Shown: piece by piece, positions 1 to 16,940 of the stretch | How positions within the stretch are numbered: the stretch's first letter is position 1 | Layout of the letters: each line of letters opens with the position of its first letter | The notes under the pieces: generated by a model | What the model was told of the DNA's origin: nothing | The model's input: only the letters and a program-made list of their open reading frames with translations | The model's database searches: none | Made by a program: the position numbers and the translations under genes | DNA from: a virus | Lineage: Duplodnaviria > Heunggongvirae > Uroviricota > Caudoviricetes | Length of the DNA: 33,415 bases | Virus record (IMG/VR): IMGVR_UViG_2563366922_000004 | Strand: one strand, 5' to 3'

Positions 1-3152
<3,152 letters not shown>

Positions 3153-3172
<20 letters not shown>

Positions 3173-4472
3173 TCTCCCGCATATTGCCAGTATGGCCTTT
3201 AATGAGCCGCTGATGCTTGAACCCGCCTATGCGCGGGTTTTCTTTTGTGCGCTTGCAGGCCAGCTTGGGATCAGCCGCCTGACGGATGCGGTATCCGGCG
3301 ACAGCCTGACTGCCGGAGAGGCACCCGCGGCGCTGGCGTTATCCGTTGATGATGACGGACCACGACAGGCCCGCAGTTATCAGGTCATGAACGGCATCGC
3401 CGTGCTGCCGGTGTCCGGCACGCTGGTCAGTCGGACGCGAGCGCTGCAGCCGTATTCGGGGATGACCGGTTACAACGGCATTATCGCCCGTCTGCAACAG
3501 GCTGCCAGCGACCCGATGGTGGACGGCATTCTGCTCGATATGGATACGCCAGGCGGGATGGTGGCAGGGGCATTTGACTGCGCTGACATCATCGCCCGTG
3601 TGCGTGACATAAAGCCGGTATGGGCGCTGGCCAACGACATGAACTGCAGTGCAGGTCAGTTGCTTGCCAGTGCCGCCTCCCGGCGTCTGGTCACGCAGAC
3701 CGCCCGGACAGGCTCCATCGGCGTCATGATGGCTCACAGTAATTACGGTGCTGCGCTGGAGAAACAGGGTGTGGAAATCACGCTGATTTACAGCGGCAGC
3801 CATAAGGTGGATGGCAACCCCTACAGCCATCTTCCGGATGACGTCCGGGAGACACTGCAGTCCCGGATGGACGCAACCCGCCGGATGTTTGCACAGAAGG
3901 TGTCGGCATATACCGGCCTGTCCGTGCAGGCTGTGCTGGATACCGAGGCTGCAGTGTACAGCGGTCAGGAGGCCATTGATGCCGGACTGGCTGATGAACT
4001 TGTTAACAGTACCGATGCGATCACCGTCATGCGTGATGCACTGGATGCACGTAAATCCCGTCTCTCAGGAGGGCGAATGACCAAAGAGACTCAATCAACA
4101 ACTGTTTCAGCCACTGCTTCGCAGGCTGACGTTACTGAGGTGGTGCAAGCGACGGAGGGCGAGAACGCCAGCGCGGCGCAGCCGGACGTGAACGCGCAGA
4201 TCACCGCAGCGGTTGCGGCAGAAAACAGCCGCATTATGGGGATCCTCAACTGTGAGGAGGCTCACGGACGCGAAGAACAGGCACGCGTGCTGGCAGAAAC
4301 CCCCGGTATGACCGTGAAAACGGCCCGCCGCATTCTGGCCGCAGCACCACAGAGTGCACAGGCGCGCAGTGACACTGCGCTGGATCGTCTGATGCAGGGG
4401 GCACCGGCACCGCTGGCTGCAGGTAACCCGGCATCTGATGCCGTTAACGATTTGCTGAACACACCAGTGTAA
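3153..4472 (+). CDS. C: Head maturation protease / minor capsid protein C (439 aa), GTG start
   Basis: ORF track opens at 3039, but lambda C begins MTAELRNLPHIASMAFNEPLMLEP, which corresponds to the in-frame GTG at 3153; length from 3153 is 439 aa as in lambda; overlaps end of B. Confidence 0.88.
3867..4472 (+). CDS. Nu3: Scaffolding protein Nu3, in-frame internal start within the 3' part of C (201 aa)
   Basis: In lambda, Nu3 is the last 606 nt of C in the same frame; there is an in-frame ATG exactly 606 nt before the C stop (MDATRRMFAQKV...). Confidence 0.6.
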   Translation: MDATRRMFAQKVSAYTGLSVQAVLDTEAAVYSGQEAIDAGLADELVNSTDAITVMRDALDARKSRLSGGRMTKETQSTTVSATASQADVTEVVQATEGENASAAQPDVNAQITAAVAAENSRIMGILNCEEAHGREEQARVLAETPGMTVKTARRILAAAPQSAQARSDTALDRLMQGAPAPLAAGNPASDAVNDLLNTPV

Positions 4473-4869: not shown

Positions 4870-5145
4870 ATGTCGATGTACACAACCGCCCAACTGCTGG
4901 CGGCAAATGAGCAGAAATTTAAGTTTGATCCGCTGTTTCTGCGTCTCTTTTTCCGTGAGAGCTATCCCTTCACCACGGAGAAAGTCTATCTCTCACAAAT
5001 TCCGGGACTGGTAAACATGGCGCTGTACGTTTCGCCGATTGTTTCCGGTGAGGTTATCCGTTCCCGTGGCGGCTCCACCTCTGAATTTACGCCGGGATAT
5101 GTCAAACCCAAGCACTTAGCATGGCTTTCTGAGGCTTTCGTGTAG
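4870..5145 (+). pseudogene. E: Major capsid protein E, 5' fragment: 82 native codons then 9 insert-derived codons (LAWLSEAFV) and stop
   Basis: MSMYTTAQLLAANEQKFKFDPLFLRLFFRESYPFTTEKVYLSQIPGLVNMALYVSPIVSGEVIRSRGGSTSEFTPGYVKPKH matches lambda E residues 1-82; similarity ends abruptly at 5115/5116. Confidence 0.9.
5107..5115 (+). repeat. Left att core copy CCCAAGCAC (attL side)
   Basis: Matches the right copy CCGAAGCAT at 16152-16160 in 7 of 9 positions; both lie exactly where lambda-E homology ends and resumes. Confidence 0.6.
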
Positions 5146-5227
5146 TTGCTGGTTTTTACACTTAATCTTTTGATAATAAAGAATAAGTTTATCTGGCGCT
5201 TTCACTGAATTTTCCTCGTTATCTGTG

Positions 5228-5263
5228 TGTTGCAATCATCTCTGTATTGCAGCTTGTATTGCT
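5228..5263 (+). promoter_or_regulatory. Cluster of TGT(A/T)TTGCA direct repeats upstream of int; candidate integrase arm-type sites
   Basis: tgttgcaa (5228-5235), tgtattgca (5243-5251), tgtattgct (5255-5263); the same TGTATTGCA motif recurs twice near the other end at 16043-16063. Confidence 0.4.
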
Positions 5264-5277
5264 TTTTGGGGCTAAAA

Positions 5278-6778: not shown

Positions 6779-7654
6779 ATGGCTACTCGAAAAAAAAATA
6801 GCGTAGAAATGAAAACTGTTTGTGAACTAATCATATCAAGAGATGATATGAAAGATAAAATTCAAGACAGAATTCAAAAAGGATTATTACTCCTACAGAA
6901 AAGCATAAATAACAATAGTGACTTGGAGCTGTTTAATGCTGATTACAGGAAATGGAGTGATTTTAATGCTGAGCTACTGAAGCGTAGTTTCACAAATGAT
7001 GATTTCAAAGAAGAATATGAAGGTGGGGCATTTGGTGTTATTTCATTGTACGAGACTTCCTTGGGAGAAAAAATCAGTGAGGCTACGCGTAAACTCCAGA
7101 GTAAGATAAGAAAACTAGAGTCGATTATGGAGCGACTGGAGTTAATTCCTATATCTTCCAAAGTTGTTGAAGAAAATATTGAAGTACCTCAGAGTTCAGC
7201 GGTAAAAACCAAAAAGGTATTCATTGTTCATGGAAGAGATGAAATATCAAAAACCAACTTAGAAGTGTTTTTAAGAGAAATTGGCTTAGAACCTATTGTT
7301 CTCCATAGGCAAGCTGATGTAGGTCAGACAGTGATTGAGAAATTTGAAGCAAATAGTGATGTTGGTTTCGCATTCATTCTTCTCACACCTGATGAGATCG
7401 CTTATTTATTGCCGCAAGACTCTTTACCTGATAATGAAAGAGAAAAGGAGTTACGTGCACGACCAAATGTAATGTTTGAATTTGGTTATTTCGTAGGGAA
7501 ATTAGGTCGTTCTAAGGTTTGTTGTCTATACACAGGTGATGTAGTGATTCCAAGTGATTTGAATGGTCTTATTTATAAAAAATTCAATTCTTCTATTGAA
7601 GAAGTAGCATATAGCATTATTAAAGACTTGCGAGCTACTGGTTACGCAGTTTAG
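6779..7654 (+). CDS. Two-domain protein: N-terminal coiled-coil-like region plus C-terminal TIR-like domain; candidate defence effector
   Basis: C-terminal half has the motifs I recall for bacterial TIR-like (COG4271-type) proteins: VFIVHGRD...LLTPDE...RARPNVMFEFGYFVGKLGR; the gene and its flanks are strongly AT-rich compared with neighbours. Confidence 0.55.
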   Translation: MATRKKNSVEMKTVCELIISRDDMKDKIQDRIQKGLLLLQKSINNNSDLELFNADYRKWSDFNAELLKRSFTNDDFKEEYEGGAFGVISLYETSLGEKISEATRKLQSKIRKLESIMERLELIPISSKVVEENIEVPQSSAVKTKKVFIVHGRDEISKTNLEVFLREIGLEPIVLHRQADVGQTVIEKFEANSDVGFAFILLTPDEIAYLLPQDSLPDNEREKELRARPNVMFEFGYFVGKLGRSKVCCLYTGDVVIPSDLNGLIYKKFNSSIEEVAYSIIKDLRATGYAV

Positions 7655-7729: not shown

Positions 7730-7909
7730 TTAAATTTTGACTTCATATCCGCGTTGCTGTAGTTCTTTGCGAATAATCCTTTTAATCCAGGCTGCTAAAG
7801 ATTCGTCTCCATCTACTTGCTGTGCTTGCTCCATCAACTCCCTCAACTCAGGATCTAACCGAAACTGGAACGGAGGATTACCACGTCTTTGATTTTTGTG
7901 TGTTGACAC
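7730..7909 (-). CDS. Small Arc/MetJ-type ribbon-helix-helix DNA-binding protein (59 aa, GTG start); not in the ORF track
   Basis: Manual minus-strand translation gives (V)STHKNQRRGNPPFQFRLDPELRELMEQAQQVDGDESLAAWIKRIIRKELQQRGYEVKI, with a beta-strand then two helices as in Arc; start codon overlaps palindromes. Confidence 0.5.
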   Translation of the reverse strand: MSTHKNQRRGNPPFQFRLDPELRELMEQAQQVDGDESLAAWIKRIIRKELQQRGYEVKI

Positions 7910-10838: not shown

Positions 10839-10850
10839 ACTTATGGAATA

Positions 10851-11075
10851 ACTGTTCACCACTGTTCACCCTGTCATAAATATCTTTTATATCAGTATAT
10901 TATAGGGTGAACAGTTATTTATGAACTGTTCACCAAACTATTCACTGTTCACCTTTTTGATTGTTTATTGAGCTTCAAGGGTGAACAGTGGTGAACAGTT
11001 GGTGAATAGTTTTTGTGAAACTGTTCACCCCTTAACATTATGAATTAAAAGAGAAAATATCAAAAGGTGAACAGG
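10851..11075. repeat. Iteron-type replication origin: about 10 copies of CTGTTCACC / GGTGAACAG in both orientations with an AT-rich centre
   Basis: Copies read directly at about 10852, 10862, 10906, 10926, 10945, 10979, 10990, 11000 (variant GGTGAATAG), 11021 and 11066; directly downstream of the primase gene. Confidence 0.7.
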
Positions 11076-11125
11076 TGAAGGGTTAAAACGCAAAAATTTT
11101 AATTTACTGCTGTGAGATAAAGCCT

Positions 11126-13795: not shown

Positions 13796-13839
13796 TGAAA
13801 TTAGGGCCCGTTCTGGCTGGCGGGTCCTTTCCGGCGATC

Positions 13840-13890
13840 CGGCAGGTTACGGGGCGTCAGGCGCGCGGGTTTTCGCTATTTATGAGCATT
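13840..13890. promoter_or_regulatory. cos site of the insert (cosN-like): GTTACG-GGGCGTCAGGCG-CGCGGGTTTTCGCTATTTATGA
   Basis: Flanking bases match my recollection of lambda cosN (GTTACG / CGCGGGTTTTCGCTATTTATGA) while the 12 nt between them (13852-13863) differs from lambda's GGGCGGCGACCT; lies just upstream of a Nu1-like gene, as in lambda. Confidence 0.6.
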
Positions 13891-14011
13891 TTAAGGGGAC
13901 TGGTGGTGGTTTTGTTGTTCGCTATATCTGTATGAATAATAAGAGAAAAATACAATCAATACACCAACCTGAAACAGTAATTAAGTTGTGGTATCAATGA
14001 AATTACACCTG

Positions 14012-14539
14012 ATGAACAAAAAAAACATGGCAAAAAGTTGCCGTGTAAGCGCCACTGCGTTCGATAAGTGGGGAGTGATTCCCGTCGAGCGTAAGGGCCG
14101 TGAGGCGTTCTATGATGTTGCCAGTGTAATAGATAATCGGGTTAACAATGCAATCAGCCAGATTACAAACGAAACGGGCGATATTGATGACGATGAACTT
14201 TTACGCGTCAGGATCAGATTACTGACAGCACAGGCAGAGGCGCAGGAGCTTAAAAACGAGCGCGAACGCGGCGACGTTATTGATACAGAGTTTTGTATGT
14301 ATGTTCTTTCCAAACTGGCGAGTCAGATTTCATCTATCATGGACAGCCTGCCGCTTACCATGCAAAGGCGCTTCCCACAGATGACTCCGGCTATGCTGGA
14401 TGGACTTAAAAAGGAAGTGGCTAAAGCCTGTAATGCCAGTGCCGGCGTTGCTGACAACCTCCCACAGATACTGGCTGATTATCTGATGGAAAGTACAGGA
14501 AACGTACCGGATAAGTTGCAGCTGAATAAGGATAAGTAA
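14012..14539 (+). CDS. Terminase small subunit, Nu1-like, with divergent N-terminal DNA-binding region (start 14012, or 13997/14027)
   Basis: C-terminal two-thirds parallels lambda Nu1 (RLLTAQAEAQELKN...TEFCMYVLSKLASQISSIMDSLPLTMQRRFP vs lambda RLTRAQADAQELKN...TAFCTFVLSRIAGEIASILDGLPLSVQRRFP); N-terminus differs. Confidence 0.78.
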   Translation: MNKKNMAKSCRVSATAFDKWGVIPVERKGREAFYDVASVIDNRVNNAISQITNETGDIDDDELLRVRIRLLTAQAEAQELKNERERGDVIDTEFCMYVLSKLASQISSIMDSLPLTMQRRFPQMTPAMLDGLKKEVAKACNASAGVADNLPQILADYLMESTGNVPDKLQLNKDK

Positions 14540-14550
14540 CGTAGTACGCT

Positions 14551-14826
14551 ATGACTGAATCCGAACTACTGAAAGTAATCTGCCATGCTGGTGGAGTCAG
14601 CCACCAGCATGACGAACAGACCACGCAGCCGGGCAGTGTCACCGCTGAAAATTACGCTCGTGTGGTTGCTGAGGTTATGTGGCGTGACGGTATAGAACTG
14701 AACGGACAGGATTGCTTAGTCATCCGCACCAAAGTGCTGGCTATACTGGCAGCTAGGCGGAGGCAGGGACAACGCCAGAACGTTGCATCGTACCAGTGGA
14801 AGAAGCCTGACAGACTGCGGCGATAA
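14551..14826 (+). CDS. Hypothetical protein (91 aa)
   Basis: ORF directly downstream of the small terminase gene; no recognisable family. Confidence 0.4.
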   Translation: MTESELLKVICHAGGVSHQHDEQTTQPGSVTAENYARVVAEVMWRDGIELNGQDCLVIRTKVLAILAARRRQGQRQNVASYQWKKPDRLRR

Positions 14827-15122
14827 CTCTTTGATTTTCTCGACGGCCCCAAAATGGGCCTTACCATAGCCAGCTAATAAATGAGCAAGCCTCAAAAGTG
14901 AGGTTTGTGGCCGTTTGGCCTATTCATATGCTAACTCGTTGATATTCCTGACGACGCAAATTTACGCCTTGTGGCTGGTAGTCGAATTGCAAATTTGCAA
15001 CTCAACTATGAAACTACAGGTAGTTTGGGTAGTAAAAGCAACACACTGATTTTGGGGCTTCTTCGCGATACCTAATATTATGGTATCGGTGGAAGAGATA
15101 TCGTTTCTCATAGGTTAGCACC

Positions 15123-15142
15123 GAGGGCGGAGTTCCGCCCTC
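15123..15142. other. Perfect inverted repeat GAGGGCGGA-gt-TCCGCCCTC in the ORF-free spacer downstream of the HEPN gene
   Basis: Read directly; no clear U-run on either strand, so terminator function is uncertain. Confidence 0.3.
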
Positions 15143-15228
15143 ATCGAAAAATTGCTTACGAGTCGTCAAAATAAATTAATCGACTGAGTATAATGATTAA
15201 CTAATTGCTCGTGTTACTTCATTATACG

Positions 15229-15990
15229 TTATTTCCCATCTTTAAGGTTTAACCAAGTGTTAATTAAAAAAAGAGCCATTGAGCCTGATAAATTTACTGC
15301 AAGTTCGGCATGCCTTGGGGATGGCTTAATTGATGAGCTGTTCGTTCCATGTGCATCACCGAGTTTATTACGAAGAGTACCTAACCCATTTACAACTGCA
15401 GAACAACCGCCGAGAATTTGTTTGAAGATATTTTCAGTATGTTGGTCGGCAGATAGGTTAAGTTCTTTTGAAAGAGTTTTATAAAGCTCTGACATTTCAA
15501 TATTTTTATTATTATACTGAATGCCCATATCATCAAGAATGTGTTTGCAAACTGTTTCAAGAAGTGTTCTTGCGGAGGTTATCGCACCATCCGGATCTGT
15601 ATGGCGCCGTTCAAGTGCTTTTATCCAAACGGCGTGGACTCCATCCTCGTTAAACTTTCTTAATACATCAGATATGTCTTCATCCGCTGGAGCTTTATTT
15701 TTCCCTTCTAGATAGTCCAGCATCGGCTGAAATGCCTTATAAATCAAATCTCTCCGGGGGGCATACTTTTCAGTCTTTTTTATAAATCCCCAAAATTCTT
15801 TTAGTGAGCGATTAGTTCTCACAAACTCTGGTAATAGCTGATGTAAAGGAGGATTTTGTAAGAAATATGTTCTTAGAAGCAAATAATCATTATTAGCTTC
15901 ATCCTGGGCTCCTGTAGCTCTTGCAATTAGTATGTTTTGAAGCGCTACTGCGCGCTCTAGGTCATTTTGAAGGGTATCTATAATATTCAT
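15229..15990 (-). CDS. HEPN-domain protein of the Abi_C (abortive infection C-terminal) type, 253 aa
   Basis: Contains R-x6-H motif in LRNKLGDAHG preceded by ...ITSARTLLETVCKHILDDMGIQY...LYKTLSKELNL...ENIFKQILGGCSAVVNGLGT, matching my recollection of Abi_C; only minus-strand gene in the insert besides the RHH; AT-rich. Confidence 0.65.
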   Translation of the reverse strand: MNIIDTLQNDLERAVALQNILIARATGAQDEANNDYLLLRTYFLQNPPLHQLLPEFVRTNRSLKEFWGFIKKTEKYAPRRDLIYKAFQPMLDYLEGKNKAPADEDISDVLRKFNEDGVHAVWIKALERRHTDPDGAITSARTLLETVCKHILDDMGIQYNNKNIEMSELYKTLSKELNLSADQHTENIFKQILGGCSAVVNGLGTLRNKLGDAHGTNSSSIKPSPRHAELAVNLSGSMALFLINTWLNLKDGK

Positions 15991-16042
15991 AACAAATCTT
16001 TATTCACTTCATTTGTGGGTTGATAATTGAATGGTTTGTACA

Positions 16043-16063
16043 TTGATTTCTGTGTATTGCAGT
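16043..16063 (+). promoter_or_regulatory. Two TGTATTGCA direct repeats near the right end; candidate integrase arm-type sites
   Basis: Same 9-mer as at 5243-5263 near the left end; 12 bp spacing. Confidence 0.4.
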
Positions 16064-16151
16064 GTGTATTGCAACATAGCCATTCAGGTAGAGATTATGC
16101 TCTATTTTTCCTCTTATATCATTCACATACTTACACCATTGACTCATGTAG

Positions 16152-16160
16152 CCGAAGCAT
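16152..16160 (+). repeat. Right att core copy CCGAAGCAT (attR side; E codons P-K-H)
   Basis: Direct repeat partner of 5107-5115; immediately followed by E codon 83 (gaa gtg aat = EVN). Confidence 0.6.
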
Positions 16161-16940
16161 GAAGTGAATCCGCAGATGACCCTGCGTCGCCTGCCGGATG
16201 AAGAACCGCAGAATCTGGCGGACCCGGCTTACCGCCGCCGTCGCATCATCATGCAGAACATGCGTGACGAAGAGCTGGCCATTGCTCAGGTCGAAGAGAT
16301 GCAGGCAGTTTCTGCCGTGCTTAAGGGCAAATACACCATGACCGGTGAAGCCTTCGATCCGGTTGAGGTGGATATGGGCCGCAGTGAGGAGAATAACATC
16401 ACGCAGTCCGGCGGCACGGAGTGGAGCAAGCGTGACAAGTCCACGTATGACCCGACCGACGATATCGAAGCCTACGCGCTGAACGCCAGCGGTGTGGTGA
16501 ATATCATCGTGTTCGATCCGAAAGGCTGGGCGCTGTTCCGTTCCTTCAAAGCCGTCAAGGAGAAGCTGGATACCCGTCGTGGCTCTAATTCCGAGCTGGA
16601 GACAGCGGTGAAAGACCTGGGCAAAGCGGTGTCCTATAAGGGGATGTATGGCGATGTGGCCATCGTCGTGTATTCCGGACAGTACGTGGAAAACGGCGTC
16701 AAAAAGAACTTCCTGCCGGACAACACGATGGTGCTGGGGAACACTCAGGCACGCGGTCTGCGCACCTATGGCTGCATTCAGGATGCGGACGCACAGCGCG
16801 AAGGCATTAACGCCTCTGCCCGTTACCCGAAAAACTGGGTGACCACCGGCGATCCGGCGCGTGAGTTCACCATGATTCAGTCAGCACCGCTGATGCTGCT
16901 GGCTGACCCTGATGAGTTCGTGTCCGTACAACTGGCGTAA
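16161..16940 (+). pseudogene. E: Major capsid protein E, 3' fragment (codons 83-341, beginning EVNPQMTLRRLPD...)
   Basis: Translation matches lambda E from residue 83 to the C-terminal ...FVSVQLA; 82 + 259 = 341 codons, the full length of lambda E. Confidence 0.9.

Follow-up and report, generated by a model that had tools for sequence, protein, structure and literature searches.

Does a hairpin-rich, gene-free stretch of DNA beside a toxin-like gene belong to that gene, as its regulator, or to the mobile element in which both are found? The question is raised by 33,415 nucleotides of DNA from a tailed virus (Caudoviricetes; IMG/VR record IMGVR_UViG_2563366922_000004), the whole of which we call the window. 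The window is a lambda-like prophage with a helper-embedded satellite of the phage-inducible chromosomal island (PICI) type in, and co-oriented with, its major capsid gene E. Towards the right end of this satellite, an abortive-infection gene on the minus strand (hereafter abi) is separated from the last plus-strand gene, orf91, by a spacer of 402 nt (14827-15228) in which, as a sequence-only reading of the window had observed, there is no open reading frame (ORF) of at least 60 aa (the largest are 44-59 aa). That reading had grouped gene and spacer as one AT-rich cargo islet, and had suggested that the spacer could encode a small RNA (sRNA) or an antitoxin-like regulator of the gene. Our analysis indicates instead that the abi cargo and the spacer are probably two unrelated things lying side by side, the spacer being a structured untranslated region at the 3' end of the late operon of the satellite.

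The spacer is not co-inherited with abi. Among 5,426 E. coli genomes, abi occurred in 41, always in the same composite (four further matches to the abi query covered attP-arm sequence only and were kept out of the count), whereas the spacer core was found in 703 (~13%), set against those 41 copies of abi and six more distant homologues. The closest foreign abi, from Klebsiella (86% protein and 81% DNA identity), lies in a defence island beside a SIR2 gene; a 70%-identical copy stands at the 3' end of a fis-integrated Klebsiella oxytoca PICI, on the strand opposite to the island genes as it does here, and a 60%-identical homologue occupies a plain chromosomal site between housekeeping genes. 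DNA similarity to these foreign loci extends at most over 15239-16001, i.e. the ORF and ten bases upstream, and abi homologues in Klebsiella and metagenomes have the ORF alone in common, with unrelated flanks and no conserved neighbour. The spacer, for its part, is conserved at 72-85% behind orf91 homologues in several satellite types and integration sites, nearly all of them without abi, and orf91 together with the DNA that follows it was found at 72-79% identity in ~1,600 E. coli genomes. Of the earlier suggestion, the antitoxin or partner part is not supported by this distribution; a small or structured RNA may yet be made from the spacer, but it would belong to the satellite backbone.

Composition and homology draw the same boundary. 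The cargo is an 877-bp AT-rich insertion (15143-16019) with one gene: GC content over 15001-16000 is 0.386/0.382, while the remainder of the insert stands at 0.42-0.53 and the prophage on either side at 0.55-0.63, and abi itself, rightly described beforehand as AT-rich, has 0.38, below both. The islet had been drawn from 14827 to 16040, which holds for 15143-16019 but not for the spacer, whose composition is ordinary (0.496 for 14501-15000) and which is not part of the cargo. Alignment to the satellite backbone ends at 15142, and homology to an Abi-less capE-type satellite (L195; relatives of the locus are given L numbers) resumes at 16020; the stretch 15143-15228 is conserved neither with abi elsewhere nor with the backbone. 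The slot so defined is empty in most relatives sampled (L002, L003, L004, L195 and L211-L214), and its content varies between a conserved packaging end and the attachment-site arm, as in the 3' accessory hotspots of satellites; abi holds it in this window and in the K. oxytoca PICI. In one further satellite (L137, IMG/VR contig 2690316346_000015), the element described below is truncated inside its tail and a different minus-strand HEPN gene (180 aa; PF05168, E=1e-4) sits in the same slot.

What, then, is the spacer? Up to 15142 it would form the 3' untranslated region (UTR) of the late/packaging operon (capsid, decoration, AlpA-like, terS and orf91), in which two TAAC..GTTGATATT units precede a conserved element of ~160 nt that is rich in hairpins (Table 1). 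The units start with TAACNNGTTGATATT at 14824 and 14932 and represent a local duplication of 108 nt with 72% identity. The motif TAACNNGTTGATATTYC (14824-14840 and 14932-14948 in the window; L215:3653-3822) occurs on the plus strand only, in one to four copies after every orf91 homologue; the stop codon of orf91 falls within the first copy, and behind each copy stands a short hairpin whose stem is GC and whose loop is A/T-rich. All four inverted repeats that had been picked out in the spacer are present where they had been placed (Table 1), and the fold of the 402 nt is far more stable than chance (-126.4 kcal/mol vs -96.7 +/- 5.4 for dinucleotide shuffles; z=-5.5, with 0/100 shuffles as good). 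An alignment of 41 distinct copies showed a common core followed by one of three alternative tails, each of which forms a hairpin with a T-rich run behind it.

Placed as it is between a terminator and the final stop codon of the late genes, the element most likely acts as plus-strand RNA, and its pattern of substitution points the same way. In the stem that we term H3, a C-G pair is replaced by U-A in four sequences by way of U.G in three, and an A-U pair by C-G in one. Most one-sided changes in stems are C-to-U opposite G (at one pair in 13 of 27 sequences), which favours plus-strand RNA because such a change is tolerated only in the plus-strand transcript. The element would thus serve either as a 3'-end structure or insulator of the mRNA or as the source of a 3'-UTR-derived RNA. 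The tail type of the window, which recurs in L002 (an 11-bp stem and T-rich tail) and L003, scores in those relatives as a plus-strand intrinsic terminator. In the window, homology to the backbone ends directly after the 8-bp core of the terminator stem, and a terminator scan returned no terminator-like site there: the stem is intact and its tail reads ATCGAAAAATTG, suggesting that the abi cargo entered at the base of the terminator stem and replaced the U-tract.

Several observations weigh against a structured 3' end. Covariation is thin, with only two pairs changed on both sides among 30 closely related sequences and most stems never varying, and minus-strand folding of the palindromes is as good as that of the plus strand or better (z=-6.0 vs -3.6). 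In the first palindrome, G9/C12 becomes A9/T12, which keeps a perfect DNA palindrome and would also fit a dimeric DNA-binding protein, and a plus-strand frame through the core is open in 27 of 30 variants. With its U-tract lost, the terminator of the window may not terminate. The model PICI EcCICFT073 of E. coli CFT073 (L215) has an orf91 homologue and the TAAC units without the 160-nt core, so the core must be dispensable for induction, packaging and transfer of that island. On the side of the cargo, even the lactococcal AbiJ is without an established mechanism (PMC13064643).

A more specific version, which we consider rather unlikely, is that orf91 and the element form a hitherto undescribed, satellite-specific RNA module, either a 3'-UTR-derived regulatory RNA or a read-through switch, and that at this locus the loss of the U-tract couples read-through to antisense silencing of abi. 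If true, satellite and helper would be spared from abi during their own induction.

Table 1. Coordinates of the features discussed, as positions in the window.
Feature	Position	Strand	Basis or remark
orf91, satellite gene, phrog_1561, 91 aa, basic C-terminus	14551..14826	+	always directly upstream of spacer modules
Variable part of the 3' untranslated region	14824..14982	+	two units, each followed by short hairpins
Hairpins of the variable part, GGCCCCAAAATGGGCC and AAGCCTCAAAAGTGAGGTTT	14843-14858; 14887-14906	+	
Inverted repeat cctca/tgagg	14890-14903		read from sequence
Conserved non-coding element, ~160 nt	14983..15142	+	alignment of relatives
Element: palindrome GAATTGCAAATTTGCAACTC	14983-15002		
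Inverted repeat ttgcaaatttgcaa	14987-15000		read from sequence
Element: AAACTAC/GTAGTTT repeats	15011-15034		
Element: invariant GATTTTGGGGCTT	15047-15059		
Element: hairpin CGATACC-loop-GGTATCG	15066-15088		
Inverted repeat gatacc...ggtatc	15067-15087		read from sequence
Element: small hairpin	~15093-15108		
Element: GC-rich terminator stem	15123-15142		
Inverted repeat gagggcggagttccgccctc	15123-15142		read from sequence
AT-rich cargo flank, 3' of the abi stop	15143..15228	-	A/U-rich 9-bp hairpin at ~15187-15226
abi, stand-alone AbiJ-type abortive-infection gene, 253 aa, ATG start	15229..15990	-	ORF list, RefSeq, Pfam, PADLOC, alignment, model
5' flank of the cargo, 29 nt	15991..16019	-	between abi start and resumed backbone homology
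Right arm of the satellite attachment site	16020..16159	+	doubled TGTGTATTGCA at 16051-16073; core AAGCA at 16155-16159

We rank a structured 3' UTR or terminator first among explanations of the element and a DNA-binding array second. In the latter, the palindrome GAGTTGCAGATCTGCAACTC, the AAACTAC/GTAGTTT and TACCC/GGGTA repeats and the TAAC..GTTGATATT units would be bound as double-stranded DNA by orf91, an AlpA-type regulator or excisionase, or the integrase, upstream of attP and int once the satellite is circular. The palindrome centre changes from GATC to AATT, with GATT intermediates, keeping a perfect palindrome at positions that would be unable to pair in a hairpin loop; the short repeats are oriented, present in one to four copies and always beside orf91, whose C-terminus is strongly basic; and the element, close to the att end, would stand upstream of int, at a distance of a few hundred bp, once the satellite has circularised. 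It is nonetheless 300-1,000 bp from the crossover core and outside a normal attP, and it remains the same among carriers whose integrases and attachment sites differ (thiM, phoQ, yejO, hpt, prophage genes A and E). The stems of the small hairpins vary in sequence yet stay complementary, which points to structure and not to recognition of a sequence, and the U.G-compatible substitutions described above again favour plus-strand RNA. EcCICFT073 is in addition functional without the core. On balance, we consider such an array unlikely.

Translation of the core is unlikely. A protein of ~40 aa in most relatives (MGWLVGELQICNSTMKLRKLPVVWVVRVTPRFWGLLAIPK), and of at most 26-44 aa in the window, would arise from a start of its own or by read-through from orf91. 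The open frame mentioned above is kept by a 9-nt indel, has a potential ATG, GTG or TTG start at the same codon in most loci and in many runs on directly from the orf91 stop; synonymous changes make up 44% of its substitutions and 11-33% of those in the remaining plus-strand frames. The 52-aa ORF that PGAP annotates at this place in some genomes is read in another frame. In one metagenomic variant (L140, IMG/VR contig 3300045988_159602), GAA replaces the TAA stop of orf91, which is thereby fused to the open frame through the element. The excess of third-position changes is, however, not significant (21/11/16), an antisense frame sharing the wobble position does nearly as well, no convincing Shine-Dalgarno sequence was seen, and the C-terminus differs with each type of tail. 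In the window, the frame is cut short by indels (one of 4 nt and a deletion of 9 nt) and by a TGA at 15047-15049, with conservation continuing for 95 nt past the stop; relatives of type A are likewise conserved for ~70 nt beyond theirs.

It is also improbable that the spacer is functionless debris, a mosaic of terminator hairpins and recombination junctions hitchhiking with the right end of the satellite. The number of units does vary, tandem duplications 434 nt apart (L128, L142 and L158), truncations (L195 and L137) and an insertion-sequence (IS) insertion (L174) are all seen, and the core is absent from EcCICFT073. Against this, ~160 nt are kept at 75-95% identity across satellites with differing neighbour genes and integrases, where the orf91 coding sequence is at 72-79%; stem H3 carries compensatory changes, and the fold energy lies far below that of shuffled sequences. 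In four loci (L128, L142, L158 and L174), the two copies of the element that stand 434 nt apart bear different tails, and in L174 an IS end interrupts the second copy right after GATTTTGGGGCT.

A role for the spacer as an RNA antitoxin of the HEPN protein, in the manner of type III toxin-antitoxin systems (ToxIN, AbiF, AbiV), is very improbable and appears already largely refuted by the distribution given above: RNA antitoxins are known for the HEPN Abi proteins AbiV and AbiF (PMC13064643), and the spacer adjoins abi and is rich in structure, but it lies 3' of abi and convergent with it instead of upstream and co-directional, it is devoid of a tandem repeat array, and self-inhibition has been proposed for those AbiJ-family proteins that have an N-terminal domain (PMC3710099). 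The scan for such arrays (14500-16300) found none in 14500-16050, its sole tandem repeat being a 12-nt doublet (x1.9) in the att arm at 16051-16073, upstream of the abi start. A type III system or a HEPN-MNT pair was likewise rejected, there being neither an array, nor a neighbouring ORF of at least 60 aa, nor a co-inherited partner.

Other identities for the spacer were also set aside. An Rfam 15 covariance search of 14500-16200 gave no match even at E<=1, ARAGORN detected no tRNA or tmRNA, and no consensus sigma-70 promoter was matched in the spacer or its relatives. A literature search for known sRNAs by sequence words produced only unrelated primer coincidences. Two papers on sRNAs of enterohaemorrhagic E. 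coli concern other loci, and the Pas sRNAs, which are described as prophage-encoded with a suggested origin in Shiga toxin-converting phages, were discounted in view of the lack of any match to the spacer module in 50,697 phage records, the Pas sequences themselves not having been compared directly. As a cos site, the spacer is displaced by a cos-like sequence at 13820-13892 (a cosN-like 12-mer with two or fewer mismatches was found nowhere in the window), and as a replication origin or P4 crr by TGTTCACC iterons, which occur at 10840-11080 only. Spacer and remainder of the satellite have no motifs in common beyond chance 9-11-mers, and although GCCCCAAAAT (14846) can pair over a long range with ATTTTGGGGC (15049) and with the int leader at 5264, relatives do not conserve this pairing.

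The identity of the cargo gene is solid. The sequence-only reading had recognised a HEPN R-x(4-6)-H signature in LRNKLGDAHG, with upstream helices like those of Abi_C-type proteins; the profile search that it called for matched Pfam Abi_C (PF14355) at E=1.3e-23 and 83.3 bits, above the curated cut-off of 24, over residues 168-243 (nt 15262-15489) and 2-82 of 83 profile positions, and the PADLOC model for AbiJ matched residues 129-243 (2.2e-21). Within the motif, R207 (codon 15370-15372), N208 and H214 (codon 15349-15351), with six residues between R and H, are invariant as R-N-x5-H in all 35 aligned homologues (58-100% identity), bearing out both signature and assignment. The AlphaFold2 model (pLDDT, the predicted local distance difference test, of 85) is all-helical, in keeping with the all-alpha HEPN fold. 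Residues ~1-125 form a confidently modelled helical N-terminal domain, for which no Pfam family was found at E<=1. A search of 5.8 billion proteins returned 5,745 homologues, the best 120 of which are full-length, 58-100% identical and, where named, called 'abortive infection family protein', as is the identical copy in RefSeq. The gene had also been singled out as the only one on the minus strand in this part of the insert, and the right half indeed has no other; the sole other annotated minus-strand gene of the insert encodes a 59-aa hypothetical protein near 7730-7909.

In the AbiJ family, the HEPN domain is fused to varied N-terminal domains, for which a role in detecting the invader and in keeping the RNase in check has been proposed (Anantharaman et al. 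2013, PMC3710099). By analogy with known HEPN Abi proteins, we infer that the predicted RNase would be held inactive by the helical N-terminal domain until it meets a phage-derived cue, and that RNA cleavage would then arrest the cell and abort infection by competing phages. The cargo is antisense to helper late transcription because the satellite is embedded in its helper prophage, and its orientation suggests that, on helper induction, late transcription across the satellite could silence abi. Any promoter of abi must lie in, or overlap, the att-arm region of the satellite, since the 29-nt 5' flank is too short to hold a complete one. The sole promoter-like site upstream of the gene (16122-16094 on the minus strand, ATGATA-17-CATAAT) falls in the att arm, which is conserved, on the far side of the doubled motif for the integrase, so abi transcription may begin in backbone DNA and cross the arm sites.

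The satellite itself spans 11,045 bp between AAGCA cores at 5110-5114 (left) and 16155-16159 (right). The prophage flanks are 99.5% identical to lambda D/E, and gene E, cut in two by the insert, resumes at 16160. An identical copy is annotated by RefSeq in E. coli strain 550 (NZ_CP058223), where the plus strand reads int, helix-turn-helix (HTH), TIR, Icd-like, DUF4222, primase, single-stranded DNA-binding protein, major capsid, head decoration, HTH, terS and a 91-aa hypothetical protein, followed on the minus strand by the 'abortive infection family protein', the whole set being flanked by two 'major capsid protein' fragments. In size, int, AlpA-type regulator, primase with origin, unidirectional late zone and insertion in a helper late gene, it has the marks of PICIs and helper-embedded satellites. 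AlpA and Nu1 domains were detected among its proteins, and it encodes its own E-family capsid and decoration genes. Its predicted replication origin is a cluster of ~10 TGTTCACC iterons in both orientations at 10840-11080, just 3' of the primase gene; we take TGTTCACC to be the type I iteron of phage P4, which would imply a P4 alpha-type replicon.

The predicted packaging site is the cos-like sequence at 13820-13892, the only such match in the satellite, directly in front of the Nu1-type terS that the satellite encodes itself. The flanks of this site match the helper cosQ/cosN region at 89% identity, but 6 of 12 cohesive-end positions differ (GGGCGTCAGGCG vs GGGCGGCGACCT), so that the sticky ends of the satellite would mismatch those of lambda. 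Near the left end, three copies of TGT(G/A)TTGCA (5226-5265) were noted; together with the doubled TGTGTATTGCA of the right arm, they probably serve the integrase as arm-type sites in attP. Where relatives have a different integrase, another doubled motif stands at the same place, e.g. GTGTGGTCAGTT twice in L002. A second AT-rich cargo (6779-7654) lies beside the integrase in the 5' accessory region and encodes a 291-aa CAP12/Pycsar-type TIR-domain protein (Pfam E=1.2e-33).

Carriers of the element comprise satellites resembling capsid-forming PICIs (cf-PICIs) with HNH, TerS and TerL (L002, L211 and L214), capsid, decoration and Nu1 types (L004, L212 and L195) and ClpP-capsid types (L003 and L213), inserted in thiM, phoQ, yejO, tqsA, hpt, mug, clpA and prophage genes A and E, and they include pathogenic E. 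coli lineages; Salmonella and Citrobacter have copies as well. Save for sporadic ab initio ORF calls, the element is unannotated in them. A 16-mer scan of genome contigs gave chance matches in unrelated phyla only, and the breadth of the element outside E. coli is judged from the protein search with orf91, whose 398 homologues are almost all from Escherichia. Among PDB sequences, orf91 matched nothing beyond chance ankyrin hits, leaving an Rpp-like identity without a supporting match, and its AlphaFold model (pLDDT 57) was too poor for a structure search. EcCICFT073 has cos-like sites at ~2529-2606 (+) and 3264-3315 (-), upstream of orf91 (within L215:1-4200).

Set against known systems, abi is an ordinary new member of the AbiJ family in a known hotspot of a known class of satellite. 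It resembles AbiJ (PF14355; PMC3710099; lactococcal AbiJ) in its C-terminal Abi_C/HEPN domain with R-x(4-6)-H, in being a single gene with a helical N-terminus and in its residence on a mobile element; it differs in that only the C-terminal half of the protein aligns to the AbiJ profile. Immune genes have been reported from either the 5' or the 3' end of PICIs (Fillol-Salom et al. 2022, cited in PMC11364771), and the label of cargo given to abi beforehand proves apt, the gene lying in the 3' accessory/immune region described there. As in those regions and in the P4 hotspot (Rousset et al. 2022, PMC9122126), the space between packaging module and att is taken by a defence cargo that is variable, AT-rich and made up of one gene, here with the TIR protein beside int as a second cargo at the 5' end; in contrast, the slot is empty in most relatives sampled and the host satellite is embedded in a helper prophage.

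Helper-embedded satellites are typified by Eco567.11capE of E. coli NRG857c, which occupies 11 kb within capsid gene E (Tommasini, Mageeney and Williams, 10.1101/2022.07.18.500453), and the satellite of the window is likewise an 11-kb island co-oriented with a lambda-type E, with its own E-family capsid, int, AlpA, P4-type primase, late zone and doubled att-arm motif. However, 11capE is described as having no terS and 258 bp of cos in common with its helper, whereas the present satellite encodes a Nu1-type terS itself, resembles cos over 73 bp only and has an altered cohesive-end sequence. Word searches of that paper for 'abortive', 'cargo', 'defense' and 'TIR' found nothing, and a 3' non-coding element was not looked for there.

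The conserved structured element is the only part of the finding that deserves to be followed up. Like the 3'-UTR structures and sRNAs of enterobacteria, it consists of conserved hairpins between the last stop of an operon and its terminator, with conservation as high as that of coding sequence; it differs in having no Rfam family and, in the copy of the window, no U-tract. The sib/tI retroregulation of lambda may be a precedent among phages, a structured RNA being placed there, too, at the distant end of the prophage.

For the biology of phage satellites, abi adds an example to the established pattern in which they ferry single-gene defence systems in hotspots at their ends, and since the satellite lies inside its helper, prophage, satellite and defence cargo are nested here in a single locus. 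The locus also holds a lesson for annotation, namely that a structured spacer beside a toxin-like gene should not be taken for its antitoxin before co-inheritance has been checked. The element, conserved, structured, satellite-specific and unannotated, stands in hundreds of E. coli genomes, always behind the small orf91 gene. If it is indeed functional, whether as RNA or as a binding array, it would mark an unstudied step in the life of PICIs and cf-PICIs and could serve as a signature for the right ends of satellites.

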